64,000 nt of DNA, taken from the NCBI RefSeq assembly GCF_024502345.1, contig NZ_JALDNN010000001.1, one strand, 5' to 3'. Source of the stretch: Escherichia coli (lineage in GTDB: Bacteria > Pseudomonadota > Gammaproteobacteria > Enterobacterales > Enterobacteriaceae). Shown here one piece after another: positions 1,416 to 11,086 of this stretch; the stretch's first letter is position 1, and each line of letters begins with the position of its first letter. Made by a program: the position numbers and the translations under genes. The notes beneath the pieces are model-generated. The model worked only from the letters and a program-made list of their open reading frames with translations, was not told where the DNA came from and did no database searches.

Positions 1416-2171
1416 TTAGGTATTAATTAAACAAATAAAGTTACTGTGCAGCCATAAAAACGAAGCCGGGATAGCGGTGGAGACTTTAGCCGTGAGAAAA
1501 CGTTCTGTCGCATCCTGCTTTCCTTCGCCAGTCACCAATAACAAAACCTCGCGGGCATTGAGAATATCCTTCAGGCCTAAGGTGATCCCACGAGTCACGG
1601 GGCGACCCGTGGTTTTTAACATCTCATGTTGCTGTGTTCTGGCATCAAGTTGACTGATATGGCAGGCCGGTTGTAGGCTTTCTCCCGGTTCGTTCAGCCC
1701 AAGATGACCGTTTTTCCCCAACCCGAGAACGCATAAATCCAGACCGCCTTTGCGCGCAATCAGGTTCGTTACCCGTTCGCACTCTGTCTCATTTATCTCT
1801 TCGGAGCGAAAGCTGATGAGCTGGTCTTCACGCAGCCCCAGCGGCTGCACGATATGCTGTTGTAGGAAAGTTTCGCAGGTGCCAGGCATCGTTAATGGCA
1901 GATCCACCCATTCGTCGAGCTTCACGAAGGTGAGCTGGCTGATATCAACCTGCTGCTGGTGGATTTTTTCTACCAGATAATGATACGTCAGTAATGGCGT
2001 GGCTCCGGTCGCCAGGCAAATCACGGCATCCGGTTTGCTACGGATCACAGCCAATAAATATTCGCTGGCTCGTTCACTTAACGCCGTATAGTTTTCAACT
2101 TGCTGAAGGGTTTGCACAGGATGAAATTCCTTAAGTAAAGAGGCACCGCCAGAAGCAGTGCCTCGTTCCAT
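1416..2171 (-). CDS. agaI: Galactosamine-6-phosphate deaminase/isomerase (NagB family)
   Basis: ORF track 251 aa; last gene of the aga cluster by synteny. Confidence 0.9.
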   Translation of the reverse strand: MERGTASGGASLLKEFHPVQTLQQVENYTALSERASEYLLAVIRSKPDAVICLATGATPLLTYHYLVEKIHQQQVDISQLTFVKLDEWVDLPLTMPGTCETFLQQHIVQPLGLREDQLISFRSEEINETECERVTNLIARKGGLDLCVLGLGKNGHLGLNEPGESLQPACHISQLDARTQQHEMLKTTGRPVTRGITLGLKDILNAREVLLLVTGEGKQDATERFLTAKVSTAIPASFLWLHSNFICLINT

Positions 2172-2963: not shown

Positions 2964-3756
2964 TGCTGTAGTCCTCTTCTTCATTTTTACTGGCAACGGG
3001 CTGCGGTTGCGCTTGCTGCCGGGATTTCGCATTGAAAAACTCATACACCGCAAAGCCTGCGCCCAGTACGGCAACCGGCAACAGGTTGCTGACCTGGATG
3101 TAGCAAACAAACAGGAAACCGGCGATCAGGTAAGGGATATATTGCGCTTTGAACATTACGCGCAGCAGCAAGCCAAAACCAACGGCAGGCAGAATACCGC
3201 CAGCCACTTCAAAGCCGTGGGTCAACCAGGCGGGCATCGCTTTCACCAGCGCCTGCATCGCCCCTTGTGCCAGGTAAGTACAGAGGAAAGCAATCACCGC
3301 ATACGCTGAAGCGACGATGAGCATCGTTGTCCAGTTAAGCCGGGAAAACGCTGCCGTATCCGCCTCTTTCGCGCATTTATCGGCTTTGGTCATAAATAAT
3401 GAGAAAGCGGAATAGAAGAACAGAATGACGTACTGCATTAACAAACTAAACGGCAGGCCAAGACCAATTGCTGTTTTGGCATCAACGCCCGTAGACCATG
3501 CAATGACGGTGGTCATCAGACCCGCCATAATCGGGTTGGGCGGCTGAACACCACCTGCAGGGGTTAATCCGGCGAAAGCCAACTCTGTCAGACCACCGGT
3601 AATTAAGCCAGTCTGAATATCACCGAGAATAGCGCCAGTTAGGGTACAAACGATTATCGGGCGGAATAAAAATAAGGCTTCCAGCCAAAAATCAATCCCC
3701 AGAACGAAAACTAACGCCGCCAGGGATAATCCCTGAAGTAGGGTTATTTCATGCAT
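2953..3756 (-). CDS. agaC: PTS galactosamine-specific IIC component
   Basis: ORF track 267 aa, polytopic membrane protein of the mannose-family PTS. Confidence 0.9.
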   Translation of the reverse strand: MHEITLLQGLSLAALVFVLGIDFWLEALFLFRPIIVCTLTGAILGDIQTGLITGGLTELAFAGLTPAGGVQPPNPIMAGLMTTVIAWSTGVDAKTAIGLGLPFSLLMQYVILFFYSAFSLFMTKADKCAKEADTAAFSRLNWTTMLIVASAYAVIAFLCTYLAQGAMQALVKAMPAWLTHGFEVAGGILPAVGFGLLLRVMFKAQYIPYLIAGFLFVCYIQVSNLLPVAVLGAGFAVYEFFNAKSRQQAQPQPVASKNEEEDYSNGI

Positions 3757-3794
3757 TTTTATTACCTCAAACCAATATTAAGGCGATTTTAGAT

Positions 3795-4271
3795 TTAGTC
3801 AGGGATTTGTTCTTTTTGATCGCCAGGGACGTCCTGAATGAAAACATTCACGCCACGTTGTTTAATAAAACGTAAGTCCGCGAGATCCTGGTCATCGACA
3901 TAAACTTTACTGCTGATTTGCTTTTTCCCTTCCGAGAAATGCATATTGCCGACGTTGATATCTTTCAGGTCAATGCCACCTTCTACCAATTTACGTACCG
4001 TTTGTGGCGTACGGCAAATAAGGAAGATCTTCTGATGCGGTGCAGCTTTGCCGATGACGTTAATGGTTTTTTCGATAGTAAAGAAACGAATGCCAAAGCC
4101 GTAGGTTTCTGCGGTAATACCCATTAATTTCTGTTGAATATCATCGTTAGCGACAACATCATCCACGACTACCAGCAGATTCGCACCGATGGTGGATGTC
4201 CAGGTCACGCCAACCTGACCGTGAACCAGACGGTTATCAATACGGGTTAAGAGAATATTTGGACTGCTCAT
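3795..4271 (-). CDS. agaB: PTS galactosamine-specific IIB component
   Basis: ORF track 158 aa; IIB(Man-type) motif RIDNRLVHGQV. Confidence 0.9.
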   Translation of the reverse strand: MSSPNILLTRIDNRLVHGQVGVTWTSTIGANLLVVVDDVVANDDIQQKLMGITAETYGFGIRFFTIEKTINVIGKAAPHQKIFLICRTPQTVRKLVEGGIDLKDINVGNMHFSEGKKQISSKVYVDDQDLADLRFIKQRGVNVFIQDVPGDQKEQIPD

Positions 4272-4437
4272 TGTGTAATCCTCACCATAAAGTTGAATAA
4301 TATAATTTTTTTTAATATATTATTGTTGCGATATTGTACTGATGTATTTATTAAGGTTTAGTCATCTCCTTTTCCATTAAGGCACTCCCCGATATTAATC
4401 GGGAAGTACATTGGGATAAATCATAAAAAACTAATGA

Positions 4438-5310
<873 letters not shown>

Positions 5311-6465
5311 TTATGCCTGCCACGGATGAATGATTACGCCTTGCACCACGCGGTTAACGGTGCCGCTGGCTGATGGGGTATCCGGCGTATTGCCCATGTG
5401 CAGCGACTGCATCAGTGCAAACGTCTGGGCGTACATCAGGAAGCAAAATGCCTGCTCAACGTCGATAAAGTGACGTGACGGCGGCAGGATAATATGTGGA
5501 CCGGCAGCGACGATGTCGGTGCTTTCCGCGGCGATGGCGATTACGCGCATTGCCTGGTTGTCACGGCGGAGTTCAGCCAGCAGATCAAGATCATACTGAC
5601 GGGTGTAAGGGTGGCTGGAGACAAATACCACCACCAGTGTTTCGTTATCGACCAGCGATTTTGGTCCATGACGGAATCCGGTTGGAGAATCATAAAAGGC
5701 CGCCAGTTTACCCGCCGTCAGTTCCAGCACTTTCAGCGCCGACTCGCGTGCTGCGCCCTGTAAGCCACCGCTGCCGAGATAAACGATCCGTTTCCACGGT
5801 GCGTAACCAAACACACCTTCGCTGAAATCGCCCAGTGAGGTCAGGATCGCCTGGCAACGATCCGCCACGTCGCGGAAGGTTTGGCTGTTGATCGTCTCAG
5901 GTGCGAAAACCGCGAGGCAGCTGGCCATCATGGTGGTAATGCTGCTGGTCATCGCAAAGCCGCGATCGTGCGTTTCTGCGGGCATCAGCAGGGCAAACGC
6001 GTTATCGCTGTTGATCGCGTTTTGGTAAAGAGCGCCCGCTTCGTTGCAGGTGATCGGCAGGTGATAGCATTCTGGTACAAATTGATTTGCCAGTTCCACG
6101 GCAGCGACGCTTTCCGGGCTGTTGCCGGATCGACCGAAGGAGATCAACAGCAGCGGATGGGCTGGGTTCAGGTAGTCCATCGGATTGGTGACCAGATCGG
6201 TGGTCGGTACGGCGCTGAAGTTTTTACCGGTATGGCTGGCGAGCCACGGCGCGATGATGTCACCGATAAATGCCGACGTTCCGGCTCCGGTCAGGATGAT
6301 CCGCAGATTCTCTTTGCGCAGTAACGGTTCAAGGAAGTTATTGAGCGCGGAACGTAGCGCGTCGATGTTGGTGAGTGAACGGATCCATGCGCGAGGCTGA
6401 TGGCGGATCTCTTCTTCAGTCCATGTACCGGTTGCGGCGGCAGCAGGGGTGTAATTTTCTGGCAT
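5311..6465 (-). CDS. agaS: SIS-domain putative galactosamine-6-phosphate deaminase/isomerase
   Basis: ORF track 384 aa; synteny. Confidence 0.9.
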   Translation of the reverse strand: MPENYTPAAAATGTWTEEEIRHQPRAWIRSLTNIDALRSALNNFLEPLLRKENLRIILTGAGTSAFIGDIIAPWLASHTGKNFSAVPTTDLVTNPMDYLNPAHPLLLISFGRSGNSPESVAAVELANQFVPECYHLPITCNEAGALYQNAINSDNAFALLMPAETHDRGFAMTSSITTMMASCLAVFAPETINSQTFRDVADRCQAILTSLGDFSEGVFGYAPWKRIVYLGSGGLQGAARESALKVLELTAGKLAAFYDSPTGFRHGPKSLVDNETLVVVFVSSHPYTRQYDLDLLAELRRDNQAMRVIAIAAESTDIVAAGPHIILPPSRHFIDVEQAFCFLMYAQTFALMQSLHMGNTPDTPSASGTVNRVVQGVIIHPWQA

Positions 6466-6700
6466 AACTCAATCCTTAGTCTGATGAACTTGACGTCGGG
6501 CGTTGTCGCTTTCACTTGCCTTTCGTTTCATTTCACTTGGTGATGTCTTTCGTTGATTAAAATCTATATAAAAGAAACTGAAAGTTCAATGGAGAAAAAG
6601 GAAATAAAACGAAATCTGTGATCGTTGAAAGAAAAGACAAGGGAAGATTAAGAATTGCGTAATGACGTCGCTATGTTCACCGATTGCCGGATGCGGCGTA
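6466..6700. promoter_or_regulatory. agaS promoter region with AgaR-operator-like CTTTC/GAAAG repeat arrays
   Basis: Repeated CTTTCG/CGAAAG motifs (for example cgctttcacttgcctttcgtttcatttcac) immediately upstream of agaS; resembles DeoR-type AgaR operators. Confidence 0.45.
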
Positions 6701-6745
6701 CCGTAGGTCGCATAAGACGCGTTAGCGTCGCATCCGACACCGCTG
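6686..6745. repeat. REP (repetitive extragenic palindromic) element
   Basis: gccggatgcggcgt...gcgtcgcatccgac palindromic unit between agaA and agaS. Confidence 0.5.
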
Positions 6746-6804
6746 CACAGATCAAAAAGAAAGGCCTTACGGGGGAAGTGAAGGCCCAATAATGGAGCAA
6801 ACCA

Positions 6805-7938
6805 TCAAAACGAAGCTAATTGACCCTGAATCCAGATTTGTTGCACATGTAGCCCGCTATCCAGCGCAACGACGCTGGCGCGTTTGCCCGGTTTAAGCGA
6901 TCCCAGAACACCATCAACACCCAGCATTCGCGCCGGATGCAGCGACGCCATATGGATGGCTTCCGCAGGCGTTACGCCCGTCAACTCGACCATATTGCGC
7001 ACTGCCGCATCAACAGACAGCGTACTGCCCGCCAGCCCACCAGACGCGGTACGGACAACGCCACCGTGCATCTGCACTTCTTCACCACATAACGTATAGC
7101 GACCATCCGGCATCCCAGCTGCCTGCATCGCGTCGGTGATCAGTACGATTCTCTCTTTCGCACAGCAACAACACAGCGACATTGCCGCCGGATGCACATG
7201 ATGACCATCGGCTATCAGTTCCAGCCAGGCGCGCTTGTCCGTTAATCCCGCGCCAACCATTCCCGGTTCGCGGTGATGTAAACCTGTCATCCCGTTATAG
7301 CAATGCACCAGGCCGTCGGCACCAGCATCAAATGCGGCGCGGGTTTGTTGCCAGGTCGCCGCGCTATGCCCCAGCATCACCCTTACGTTTTGCTGTTTAA
7401 GATGGCGGATGGCCTGCAATGCCCCTTCTTTTTCCGGTGCCAGCGCTACCACGCGTAAGGTGTGCTGAGAAACGGCAATCAACTGATCCAGCTCGGCAAT
7501 TTCAAGCTCGCGAAACAACTGCGGCGGATGCGCGCCTTTATTCTGCGGCGTGAAGTACGGTCCTTCGAGATAACTCCCCAGCACTTGCGCACCAGGTCCG
7601 CCGCGTTGGCAACGTTGAGCAATACGTTTCAGCGCCGCATGAATGGTATTAAGCGGCGCGGTTACGGTGGTCGGTAACCAACTGCCGACACCTTCGCGTG
7701 CCTTGTGCATTGCCAGCTTGTCGAGTACATCCGGCGCGTCATCCATTACATCAACGCCCGCACCACCGTGTACATGGGTGTCGATGTAAGCAGGGCAGAG
7801 CAGTTCCGCATCGCGTTCAGTCACGCCCGCTGGAATCGGTTCGATTGCTGCGATGACACCGTCAGCAATACGCAACTGATGGTCATCGAGCCATCCCTCT
7901 TCAGTCAGCAGCCTTCTGGCGCGCAGAACGTGTGTCAT
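6805..7938 (-). CDS. agaA: N-acetylgalactosamine-6-phosphate deacetylase (NagA homolog), apparently full length
   Basis: ORF track 384-aa frame; start MTHVLRARR gives 377 aa; N-terminal HxH metal motif (DTHVHGG) present and alignable to NagA over the whole length. Confidence 0.85.
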   Translation of the reverse strand: MTHVLRARRLLTEEGWLDDHQLRIADGVIAAIEPIPAGVTERDAELLCPAYIDTHVHGGAGVDVMDDAPDVLDKLAMHKAREGVGSWLPTTVTAPLNTIHAALKRIAQRCQRGGPGAQVLGSYLEGPYFTPQNKGAHPPQLFRELEIAELDQLIAVSQHTLRVVALAPEKEGALQAIRHLKQQNVRVMLGHSAATWQQTRAAFDAGADGLVHCYNGMTGLHHREPGMVGAGLTDKRAWLELIADGHHVHPAAMSLCCCCAKERIVLITDAMQAAGMPDGRYTLCGEEVQMHGGVVRTASGGLAGSTLSVDAAVRNMVELTGVTPAEAIHMASLHPARMLGVDGVLGSLKPGKRASVVALDSGLHVQQIWIQGQLASF

Positions 7939-8076
7939 ATCCCTTCCTCGACCGGACATTCTTCATGGCAGCGGTCTAACTCGTCCACCAGACTGGTCAG
8001 CCCACGATGTCCACACTCCAGCGCCTGTACTCGGAATTCTTCACCGCTTAACCCTTCGCGCTCCAGCACCATCTCC
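7935..8076 (-). pseudogene. agaF: Remnant 3' end of PTS IIA(Aga) gene agaF (about the last 45 codons)
   Basis: Frame ...LEMVLEREGLSGEEFRVQALECGHRGLTSLVDELDRCHEECPVEEGI-stop resembles a mannose-type IIA C-terminus; its stop overlaps the agaA start codon (ATGA). Confidence 0.5.
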
Positions 8077-8241
8077 AGTACCGCCGGTTAAAATACCGGT
8101 ATGCAGATCGCCAAGTACCAGCCCGACTAACGGGCCGAGGACCACCGGGCGGTGCATATGGGTTAAGCCGTTAAACATATCCAGGCCAGCGATAAAGGCG
8201 ATAATGCCCAACGCGAATGCCTGCAACAGACTGATTTCCAT
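8041..8241 (-). pseudogene. agaW: Truncated PTS IIC(Aga) gene agaW: first ~54 codons, then 12 out-of-frame codons and a stop
   Basis: ORF track 66 aa MEISLLQAFALGIIAFIAGLDMFNGLTHMHRPVVLGPLVGLVLGDLHTGILTGG then TGDGAGARRVKR; far too short for a IIC protein. Confidence 0.7.
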
Positions 8242-8251
8242 GATGAATCCC

Positions 8252-8725
8252 TCAAAGTAATTTAAAGAGGTCCACAGCAGGCTCTGTCGGGACGCCCTGA
8301 ACGAAGCATTCCACCCCAGCGGCTTTCAGGTCGTTAAATGCTGCGATATCGCCCGCATCCACAGAAACCGTTTTGGCGATTTGTTGCTTGCCATTGGCGT
8401 AGTGCATATTGCCAACGTTAATGCGATTCACCGGAACGCCACCTTTCACCAGCGTCAGGAAATCGGCGGGTGTTTTACAAACCAGCAGGATTTTCTGTCG
8501 ATCGGCGGCGCGATGAATGTTGTCGATAACTTTTTGCAGCGTCCAGAAACGTACGGCGATCCCTTCTGCCAGTACCATTTCCATCAGGTTTTGTTGTACC
8601 GGATCTTCGGCAACCTCATCGTTGGCTACCAGCACCAGATTTGCCCCCGCAAATCCGACCCACTGAACGCCGACCTGACCGTGAATCAAGCGTTCATCAA
8701 TCCGGCTTAAAACAATATTTGGCAT
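8252..8725 (-). CDS. agaV: PTS N-acetylgalactosamine-specific IIB component
   Basis: ORF track frame 8252..8761; start MPNIVLSRIDERLIHGQVG gives 157 aa. Confidence 0.9.
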   Translation of the reverse strand: MPNIVLSRIDERLIHGQVGVQWVGFAGANLVLVANDEVAEDPVQQNLMEMVLAEGIAVRFWTLQKVIDNIHRAADRQKILLVCKTPADFLTLVKGGVPVNRINVGNMHYANGKQQIAKTVSVDAGDIAAFNDLKAAGVECFVQGVPTEPAVDLFKLL

Positions 8726-8747: not shown

Positions 8748-10028
8748 TTATTGGCCTTCACAGGCTGTGTGGTACTGCGCCAGGATGTCCTGAATATGGT
8801 TGATAATGAGTTCCCGTGGCGTTGGCTGCAGCTCGCCGGAGCGAACTTTCACGTACTGCAGCGGCAGATACTGGCTGATCAGCGGCAGCGGAATTGGTGA
8901 ATCCGCCAGATTACGTACCAGATGAGCGAAAGCGTCATCAATCTGGCTGTCCGGCCAGTAATAGCGCACGCGATCCGAGTAGCTATAACCACGCGCCAGA
9001 CGACGCGCGTTGCCGTCACCGTGGTAGTGGCTTTGCCAGTATTCCGGGCGGTCGAGCATCACGTTTTCCAGCACCTGACGCAGACCAGAACAGGCTTTTG
9101 CTGGCACCAGTTCTTCTTCAATCGCTGCCAGAGAGAACAGAGCTTCACGCAGGGCGAAGGTCAGCGCCGGGCCAACTTTCAGAATGGCAAAGTGGTCAAT
9201 CACCAGCCGGCGCAGCGATTGCGGCGTTTGATAATCGGTAGAGTGCGCTTCGAAAATCAGCGTTTCGTAGCTTTCGACCATCTGGCTTAAGGCGGTCGCT
9301 TTGGCGGGCTGATAATCAATAACGTTGGTGTGATCGAATTCGACGCCGGGTTGAACCACCAGGGCAATGATGCGTGGCCAGATGGCATTCAAACCTTGCT
9401 TTTCAAAGGCGTGACGATGGGCTTCCAGCGTGGCGCGGGCGGCATCCGGCGTGGTGACCACCAGCTCGCTTAAGGTTTCATGCGCGCCGCCAGGTACCGG
9501 CACTTCGGTACCAATGACATACTCCAGATCGGCTTCGCCAAAGTGTTCAAGACAGGTTTCTTCCGCCACTTTCGCCAGACGGGCGGCGCGTTCAGCCACG
9601 ATGTCATCAGTTAAGGGAATCGGATCGTCCTGACAGGACATGCTGCAATCAAGGTGGATTTTTTTGAATCCTGCCGCAACGTAGCTTTTAATCAAATCAT
9701 CGGCATTGGCCATTGCCTGAGCGGCCGGCAGGTTTTGCCAGCGGTTTGGCCCCAGATGGTCACCACCCAGAATCAACGCATCCTGCGGGAAATTCAACGA
9801 GTCGGCGAGCTGACAAACAAAGCCGCGAAAATCGGCGGGCGTCATTCCGGTATAACCGCCGAACTGGTCTACCTGATTGGAGGTTGCTTCAATCAGTAAC
9901 GGCGTTTGGTTTGCACTGGCGTAGCGGATTGCAGCCTCCAGCACCAGCGGATGTGCGGAACAAACGGCATAAATTCCATTTGTTTTGCCCGCTTTGTGCT
10001 GTCTCACCATTTCTGTCAGATGTTTCAC
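8748..10028 (-). CDS. kbaZ: Tagatose-bisphosphate aldolase non-catalytic subunit KbaZ
   Basis: ORF track 426 aa; synteny. Confidence 0.92.
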
Positions 10029-10276
10029 TTTCCTCTCCAGTTCAGATTACTGCGATATTAATCTTTCGTTTTGTTTCAGTTGATACTGCGTCATGGTGAG
10101 ATAAAAATAAAACGAAAGATAATAGTTTTCTGATCTGATTCACAAAAGAAACATAATGAAAGTCACTGAAACGAGAGTAGCTTGCGTCAATGGGCAAGGT
10201 GGGCTTGCATTTGCTTAATAGAAAGGCGTTAATAGGCAAAACGAAATGAAACGAAAGTTTTACGAAAGGACTTACT
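10029..10276. promoter_or_regulatory. Divergent kbaZ/agaR control region with multiple AgaR-operator-like repeats
   Basis: Many CGAAAG/CTTTCG-containing repeats (aaacgaaagataat, aacgaaatgaaacgaaagttttacgaaagg) between divergent genes. Confidence 0.5.
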
Positions 10277-11086
10277 ATGAGTAATACCGACGCTTCAGGT
10301 GAGAAGCGAGTGACAGGCACCAGCGAGCGACGAGAACAGATCATTCAGCGTCTGCGACAGCAAGGGAGTGTGCAGGTTAACGATCTGTCGGCATTGTATG
10401 GCGTATCTACTGTGACGATCCGCAACGATCTGGCGTTTCTGGAAAAGCAGGGGATCGCTGTGCGTGCCTATGGTGGCGCGTTGATCTGCGATAGCACGAC
10501 GCCGTCAGTCGAGCCATCAGTGGAAGATAAAAGCGCACTGAACACCGCGATGAAACGCAGCGTTGCGAAAGCTGCCGTTGAGTTGATTCAGCCAGGTCAT
10601 CGGGTGATCCTCGATTCCGGGACCACCACTTTTGAGATTGCTCGTCTGATGCGCAAGCACACTGACGTAATTGCGATGACCAACGGTATGAACGTGGCTA
10701 ATGCGTTGCTGGAAGCGGAAGGCGTTGAGCTGCTGATGACCGGCGGGCATTTGCGCCGTCAGTCGCAATCTCTTTACGGCGATCAGGCTGAGCAATCGCT
10801 GCAAAATTACCACTTCGATATGCTGTTTCTTGGTGTAGATGCGATTGATCTGGAGCGCGGCGTCAGCACACATAATGAAGATGAAGCCCGTTTAAACCGC
10901 CGGATGTGCGAAGTTGCGGAACGGATCATCGTGGTCACCGATTCCAGTAAGTTCAATCGTTCCAGTTTACATAAGATCATTGATACTCAACGTATCGACA
11001 TGATCATTGTTGATGAAGGCATTCCTGCGGATAGTCTGGAAGGACTGCGAAAGGCTGGGGTTGAAGTGATTCTGGTCGGGGAGTGA
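10277..11086 (+). CDS. agaR: DeoR-family transcriptional repressor of the aga cluster
   Basis: ORF track 269 aa; N-terminal HTH, DeoR C-terminal domain. Confidence 0.92.

Follow-up and report, generated by a model that had tools for sequence, protein, structure and literature searches.

The analysed sequence, referred to as the window throughout, is a 64,000-nt stretch of Escherichia coli contig NZ_JALDNN010000001.1 (assembly GCF_024502345.1), in which an aga/gam cluster of the E. coli type, a gene set for the utilization of two amino sugars (N-acetylgalactosamine and galactosamine), occupies 1.4-11.1 kb. Its genes, and a deletion junction lying among them, are as follows.

1416-2171, minus strand: agaI
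between agaI and kbaY in listing order, minus strand: agaD, agaC and agaB
4438-5298, minus strand: kbaY
5311-6465, minus strand: agaS
6805-7938, minus strand: agaA, intact
8062-8080: junction of the agaW'-agaE-'agaF deletion (1,792 bp), inside the kbaZ operon
8252-8725, minus strand: agaV
8748-10028, minus strand: kbaZ
10277-11086, plus strand: agaR, DeoR-family repressor of 269 aa without internal stops

The positions of agaS, kbaZ and agaR given in a first-pass annotation, made from the sequence alone, agree with these ORF calls, and its statement that the agaS-kbaY-agaBCDI operon is intact was borne out at the ORF level. All ten cluster ORFs, agaR included, are full length and differ from K-12 or strain HCP4S3 by 0-5 substitutions. 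The agaR product differs from that of K-12 by one substitution and contains the Pfam domains HTH_DeoR (1.9e-21) and DeoRC (8.3e-55).

The control regions upstream of agaS (6466-6700, region 1) and between kbaZ and agaR (10029-10276, region 2) had been described as carrying clustered CTTTCG/CGAAAG repeats in both orientations. The clustering is real and non-random, as the density of TTTCR/YGAAA reaches 10 and 8 in the two control regions, the two highest values of any 250-bp interval in the 64 kb (mean 1.68, sd 1.32), and exact CTTTCG/CGAAAG hexamers are overrepresented in both (4 versus 0.21 expected in region 2, P ~7e-5; 2 versus 0.20 expected in region 1, P ~0.02). With respect to orientation, the description holds for region 2 (one hexamer on the plus strand and three on the minus strand), whereas both hexamers of region 1 (6520 and 6547) lie on the plus strand and the two strands are represented there only at the level of pentamers (CTTTC at 6509, 6520, and 6547; GAAAG at 6580 and 6627). 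Similarly, the view of 6466-6700 as a repeat array is valid for approximately 6509-6618, which is the motif-bearing portion of region 1, but not for its right-hand part, where a REP-type element begins. The hexamer itself was considered as the operator unit and rejected, as it is only mildly enriched across the window (54 versus 40 expected) and only two exact copies are present in region 1, of which the one at 6547 is unconserved. Instead, the operator measures 24 nt and is built from 5-bp-phased TTTC repeats, with CTTTCG as its most informative core. Four T-rich blocks follow one another in each operator at a 5-bp phase (CTTTCR-TTTYR-TTTC-NYTT), and because of this phasing, secondary matches of the weight matrix described below appear shifted by 5 bp.

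The 24-nt AgaR operator consensus of Ray and Larson (2004) is reportedly WRMMTTTCRTTTYRTTTYNYTTKK, a string for which a full-text literature search returned no match. When the 64-kb window was scanned with it allowing up to 3 mismatches, five matches were found versus 0.22 expected from shuffled sequences, all located in the two control regions and with 0, 0, 1, 2, and 3 mismatches. The two perfect 24-mers corroborate this form of the consensus. The formal motif scan that the first-pass annotation had proposed for its reading of the repeats as AgaR operators therefore comes out in favour of that reading. Considering that the K-12 DNA from which the consensus stems is almost the same as that of the window, such a scan is partly circular, and the sites were thus also examined outside Escherichia, where conservation across genera provides independent support. 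A weight matrix built only from 164 distinct non-Escherichia orthologous sites detected six sites in the window at 21.8-35.4 bits, namely the five consensus matches and an additional one at 10098-10121 on the minus strand, and the best unrelated match reached 9.2 bits. Among 30 shuffled windows, one attained 23 bits with this matrix, so that sites near 22 bits (10098-10121) rest on conservation rather than on score. In addition, an AgaR site of PkbaZ has been published (PMC8667592, Table S3) as CTTTCGTTTCATTTTCGTTT, which corresponds to 10238-10257 on the minus strand of the window apart from one displaced T.

The features of the agaS control region, including those that extend beyond region 1 towards agaA, are listed below.

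6517-6540, plus strand: agaS-proximal AgaR operator TGCCTTTCGTTTCATTTCACTTGG, 0 mismatches, 32.5 bits, antisense to agaS transcription
6544-6554, plus strand: extra copy of TGTCTTTCGTT containing the second exact CTTTCG (6547-6552), direct repeat D2
6561-6589, minus strand: putative sigma-70 promoter PS, -35 TTGAAC (6584-6589), 17-nt spacer, -10 TAGATT (6561-6566)
6564-6587, minus strand: weak operator-like site GAACTTTCAGTTTCTTTTATATAG, 7.2 bits, overlapping the putative PS core promoter
6595-6618, minus strand: upstream PS AgaR operator CAGATTTCGTTTTATTTCCTTTTT, 2 mismatches, 25.8 bits
6685-6739: REP-type palindromic element, inverted repeat I3 with arms at 6685-6698 and 6726-6739
6755-6765, minus strand: remnant of a distal operator-like site, in which one copy of the tandem 10-mer CTTTCTTTTT has been lost

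The AgaR operators of this region lie 52-153 nt upstream of the agaS ATG. The operators at 6517-6540 and 6595-6618 form an inverted pair 78 bp apart, centre to centre, which was also recovered by the repeat search (inverted repeat I1), and a spacing of 77-79 bp recurs in 38 orthologues. The agaS-proximal operator is identical in K-12, and 58 of 72 distinct orthologous sequences have it at about +52 nt relative to the agaS ATG. The upstream operator, which has a counterpart at about +130 from the ATG on the minus strand across orthologues, differs from that of K-12 by two bases and scores 25.8 bits versus 31.0 bits in K-12, an allele shared with HCP4S3. Both hexamers of PS are within blocks that are conserved across genera; however, the putative promoter matches at only 8 of 12 positions, and a simple sigma-70 promoter scan called no promoter in the agaS region. 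The position of PS, its start site, and the distances between operators and promoter are thus predictions from sequence, under which the proximal operator would cover approximately +15 to +38 and the upstream operator approximately -41 to -64. The weak site at 6564-6587 scores 3.3 bits in K-12, and its equivalent, at about +100 from the agaS ATG on the minus strand, scores 10 bits or more in roughly one orthologue in four; conservation of this block may reflect the promoter itself. The extra copy at 6544-6554 is unconserved outside Escherichia and has no weight-matrix match. A CRP site at 6618-6633 (TGTGATCGTTGAAAGA) was considered and left out of the model, as only its TGTGATC half is conserved.

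Further from agaS, 6660-6700 was rejected as operator DNA, as it is the flank of the REP-type element at 6685-6739. A 13-mer of this element (GCCGGATGCGGCG) occurs in 16 copies in the 64-kb window versus 0.2 expected, and the palindrome belongs to a dispersed family. The element lies between agaA and the agaS operators, where K-12 has a different REP arrangement, and the REP stretch is the only strongly divergent part of the agaS-agaA spacer relative to K-12. Beyond it, the remnant at 6755-6765 adjoins a GC-rich hairpin followed by a T-run downstream of agaA. A distal operator-like site is present 289 nt upstream of agaS in K-12 and HCP4S3 (16.9 bits in both), whereas nothing of at least 3 bits is found there in the window; it is the loss of one CTTTCTTTTT copy, a 10-bp deletion, that abolishes this site. 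The longer allele with two copies of CTTTCTTTTT is present in about 5,000 E. coli genomes, and 26 of 72 orthologues from other genera have a distal site of at least 10 bits, located 232-282 nt upstream of agaS.

In the 248-bp kbaZ-agaR spacer, AgaR operators are distributed throughout.

10060-10083, plus strand: AgaR operator AATCTTTCGTTTTGTTTCAGTTGA, 3 mismatches, 28.5 bits, downstream of the putative PZ start site
10098-10121, minus strand: AgaR operator TATCTTTCGTTTTATTTTTATCTC, 21.8 bits, overlapping the putative PZ -10 region
10129-10144, plus strand: cAMP-CRP-like site TCTGATCTGATTCACA, 1 mismatch to TGTGA-N6-TCACA, between two operators
10142-10165, minus strand: AgaR operator TGACTTTCATTATGTTTCTTTTGT, 1 mismatch, 27.2 bits, upstream of PZ
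10205-10233, plus strand: putative PR promoter, -35 TTGCAT (10205-10210), 17-nt spacer, -10 GTTAAT (10228-10233)
10237-10260, minus strand: AgaR operator AAACTTTCGTTTCATTTCGTTTTG, 0 mismatches, 35.4 bits, the top matrix score in the window
10263-10268, minus strand: extra CGAAAG hexamer overlapping AAAGGA, the ribosome-binding site of agaR, 7 nt ahead of the ATG

Relative to the agaR ATG, the four operators are located at about -219 (72 of 76 orthologous spacers), -181 (67 of 76), -137 (71 of 76), and -41 (75 of 76), and the first two coincide with conserved blocks. The operator at 10098-10121 has 4 mismatches by hand count and was missed by the scan with up to 3 mismatches. Those at 10060-10083 and 10142-10165 constitute an inverted pair 82 bp apart, and the operator at 10237-10260 covers the predicted agaR transcript start, which fits autoregulation. 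PR was placed on the basis of its sequence and of two conserved blocks (10205-10214 and 10229-10235), and should be regarded as putative; the simple promoter scan did not call it in region 2 and proposed only two plus-strand candidates, neither fitting PZ or PR well. The TGTGA-N6-TCACA pattern is not enriched in the window (32 matches versus 26 expected); the CRP-like site at 10129-10144 is strongly conserved across genera, its distance to the start site being an estimate, and kbaZ is listed as a known CRP target that was recovered by genomic SELEX (PMC3105977). With regard to the extra hexamer at 10263-10268, its conservation may be related to its Shine-Dalgarno (translational) role rather than to an operator.

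The distribution of these sites outside E. coli was analyzed in 80 loci (1.51 Mb), each species that has AgaR being represented by a single genome; the genera covered were Escherichia, Klebsiella, Kluyvera, Citrobacter, Raoultella, Enterobacter, Salmonella (arizonae and diarizonae), Lelliottia, Yersinia, Buttiauxella, Serratia, Trabulsiella, Pantoea, Mixta, Cedecea, Ewingella, and other genera. Approximately 70 distinct orthologous loci, belonging to more than 20 genera of Enterobacterales, have the same sites with unchanged positions and orientations. Among 321 consensus matches in the 80 loci, 313 are located either in the kbaZ-agaR spacer (209) or within 200 bp upstream of agaS (104), and the remaining ones comprise five distal matches (235-282 nt upstream of agaS) and three elsewhere. 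The layout of the spacer, with -219 on the plus strand and -181, -137, and -41 on the minus strand, was observed in 67-75 of 76 distinct spacers. Column by column, conservation is highest over the operators, over the CRP-like site, and over the promoter hexamers, and it is lost in the stretches that separate them (e.g., 10163-10204).

The deletion in the kbaZ operon, which the first-pass annotation had reported as running from agaW to agaF, is real: 1,792 bp comprising agaW, agaE, and agaF are absent, with the junction at approximately 8062-8080. In comparison with positions 3274-5084 of locus L002, it leaves the 5' end of agaW fused with the 3' end of agaF, and a short imperfect homology (CACCAxxTCCAG) is present at the junction. 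Identity with the K-12 deletion was considered and rejected, as agaA is undamaged in the window. No sequence spanning the junction was found among 5,426 complete E. coli genomes. Moreover, the PS promoter spacer carries a C-to-A change at approximately 6569 (TTTTCTATAGATT to TTTTATATAGATT) that lifts the weak mid-promoter site from 3.3 to 7.2 bits and occurs in none of the 5,048 complete E. coli genomes matching the 61-bp segment. Among the matches listed, the draft genome GCA_032324195.1, which is 99.97% identical over 5.9 kb, has the deletion together with the PS spacer change and also lacks the distal site, and all three private changes are absent from the closest undeleted relatives. These additional private lesions are compatible with relaxed selection.

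Taken together, the repeats are almost certainly operators for the DeoR-family repressor AgaR (gene at 10277-11086). What we observed is the motif match, its restriction to the two regions, the near-identity with K-12, an intact agaR, and conservation across genera; the testable attributes that define an AgaR operator (consensus, location, K-12 identity, intact repressor, and conservation) are all present at these sites. The AgaR operators here are already known, and our result restates what Ray and Larson (2004) mapped experimentally in K-12. According to PMC3668189, which cites Ray and Larson (2004), AgaR binds the agaR, kbaZ, and agaS promoters of K-12. Fusions of the K-12 PZ and PS promoters showed an induction by N-acetylgalactosamine of 5-fold (PZ) and 20-fold (PS), and deletion of agaR made agaA and agaS constitutive (PMC3668189), whereas the physiological ligand has been reported as unclear (PMC4694137). 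The suggestion of multi-site AgaR repression at PS, PZ, and PR made in the first-pass annotation is supported by the consensus scan, the published PkbaZ site, and the near-identity with K-12.

Different explanations of these sequences should also be considered. The TTTC blocks could merely represent generic AT-rich promoter architecture, such as UP elements, bending T-tracts, or targets of H-NS or Fis, given that the motif is T-rich, is located in AT-rich intergenic DNA, and has T-tracts phased at 5 bp, and that some of the blocks extend over promoter hexamers or over the ribosome-binding site of agaR. However, the C and G positions of CTTTCG are conserved base by base in more than 20 genera with orientation and spacing fixed, hardly any copies of the motif occur in 1.47 Mb of flanking DNA with many other intergenic regions, and binding of AgaR to these promoter regions, which are nearly identical here, has been reported for K-12 (PMC3668189), all of which makes this explanation very improbable. 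It might also be argued that the sites mainly serve another DeoR-family paralogue (GatR-, TagR-, or SrlR-like), with AgaR being secondary. E. coli has 13 members of this family, and predicted TagR operators in E. coli Nissle (CTTTCAAAATGAAAGTAAA) have the same CTTTC/GAAAG cores, in a layout whose similarity to the aga cluster was remarked on by the authors (PMC12226905). Nevertheless, agaR is accompanied by the sites in all orthologous loci, its own start being covered by one of them, deletion of agaR alone is sufficient for constitutive agaA and agaS (PMC3668189), and no second DeoR-family gene is present between agaI and agaR in the window. We therefore consider a principal role of such a paralogue to be extremely improbable.

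A further alternative concerns the fate of the locus: the operators could be regulatory relics, in that without agaW, agaE, and agaF there would be neither uptake nor inducer, and the locus would be permanently repressed and decaying. The deletion indeed takes out PTS IIC, IID, and IIA components, three private lesions co-occur (deletion, altered PS spacer, and missing distal site), and in K-12, which has a comparable deletion, the galactosamine PTS genes are annotated as cryptic. By contrast, the remaining aga ORFs and agaR are intact, all six strong operators have been retained, and PZ and PS of K-12 still respond to N-acetylgalactosamine despite a larger deletion (PMC3668189). On balance, we regard the relic scenario as rather unlikely but deserving of attention; furthermore, it addresses the present usefulness of the sites and not their identity, and is compatible with their being AgaR operators. 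The agaF product is said, in work of Brinkkotter et al. (2000), to be a IIA component shared with the galactosamine PTS. Whether regulation of the agaS operon still matters in this strain, as the first-pass annotation had supposed, is at most weakly suggested by our analysis. A more speculative scenario is that the agaS region is normally a four-operator region like the kbaZ-agaR spacer, with the distal site approximately 100-160 bp upstream of the pair, and that this lineage has been regulatorily rewired rather than merely decaying. If so, the agaS-kbaY-agaBCDI operon could, for instance, be partly derepressed through the combination of distal-site loss, PS spacer change, and deletion. We think that this is improbable.

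With the sites regarded as AgaR operators, the following mechanism may be proposed. In the absence of inducer, oligomeric AgaR would sit on its operators and block RNA polymerase, with occupancy probably being cooperative across each bracketing pair. At PS, two strong inverted operators would bracket the promoter and a weak third one would lie over the core promoter, whereas at PZ the operators at 10060, 10098, and 10142 would bracket or overlap the promoter and the CRP-like site, and the operator at 10237, over the agaR transcript start, would mediate autoregulation. Repression would be relieved during growth on N-acetylgalactosamine or galactosamine, and cAMP-CRP would add activation of PZ. 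The presence of at least two operators per promoter at a conserved spacing holds at both PS (78 bp) and PZ (82 bp); cooperativity or looping across the pairs may be expected from this conserved spacing and from what is known of other DeoR-family repressors, and the functions suggested for the weak and distal sites are likewise tentative.

The value of these results lies mainly in annotation, as the AgaR operators could be placed and the repressor-operator circuit found to be intact despite three lost PTS genes. The cross-genus scan also offers a reusable picture of six strong 24-nt sites, inverted bracketing pairs, and fixed spacing. The changes private to this lineage may be of interest with regard to how amino-sugar catabolism decays or is rewired in E. 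coli and in Shigella-like lineages. The lineage appears to lie outside the RefSeq set of complete E. coli genomes and may be Shigella-like. Elsewhere in the window, 11100-36000, which contains garD, garP, and tdc genes, has a best identity of 98.7-98.9% to any complete E. coli genome, and part of it has a median of 12 matching places per genome and 2,440 places on plasmids; these multiple and plasmid-borne matches imply that a mobile element is probably located inside 11100-36000. Separately, a 100-bp unit is repeated in tandem 5.8 times at 58408-58986, and each unit contains two inverted REP-type palindromes, giving a BIME-like cluster.

Among known systems, the aga/gam regulon of K-12 (PR, PZ, and PS; Ray and Larson, Mol Microbiol 2004) has the same genes, promoters, and operator sequences. 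Region 2 is identical to that of K-12 at 247 of 248 positions, whereas the core of region 1 differs at three bases; in the window, the upstream agaS operator is weaker, the PS spacer carries the C-to-A change, and the distal site has been lost by the 10-bp deletion. The deletions in the kbaZ operon also differ, extending over 1.79 kb from agaW' to 'agaF with agaA intact in the window, and over approximately 2.3 kb with agaA truncated in K-12. Other DeoR-family sugar repressors, such as DeoR at deo, GlpR at glp, UlaR, and TagR, likewise combine HTH_DeoR with DeoRC, and their systems have several operators per promoter that overlap the core or flank it; in the window, a CRP-like site lies among them. 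DeoR forms octamers and GlpR tetramers. What distinguishes AgaR from these systems is the operator sequence itself, which is made up of 5-bp-phased TTTC repeats. An AgaR regulon in Proteobacteria, with sites upstream of aga genes, was reportedly reconstructed by Leyn et al. (J Biol Chem 2012, RegPrecise), and the scan of 80 loci presented here gives the same kind of result as such comparative genomics.
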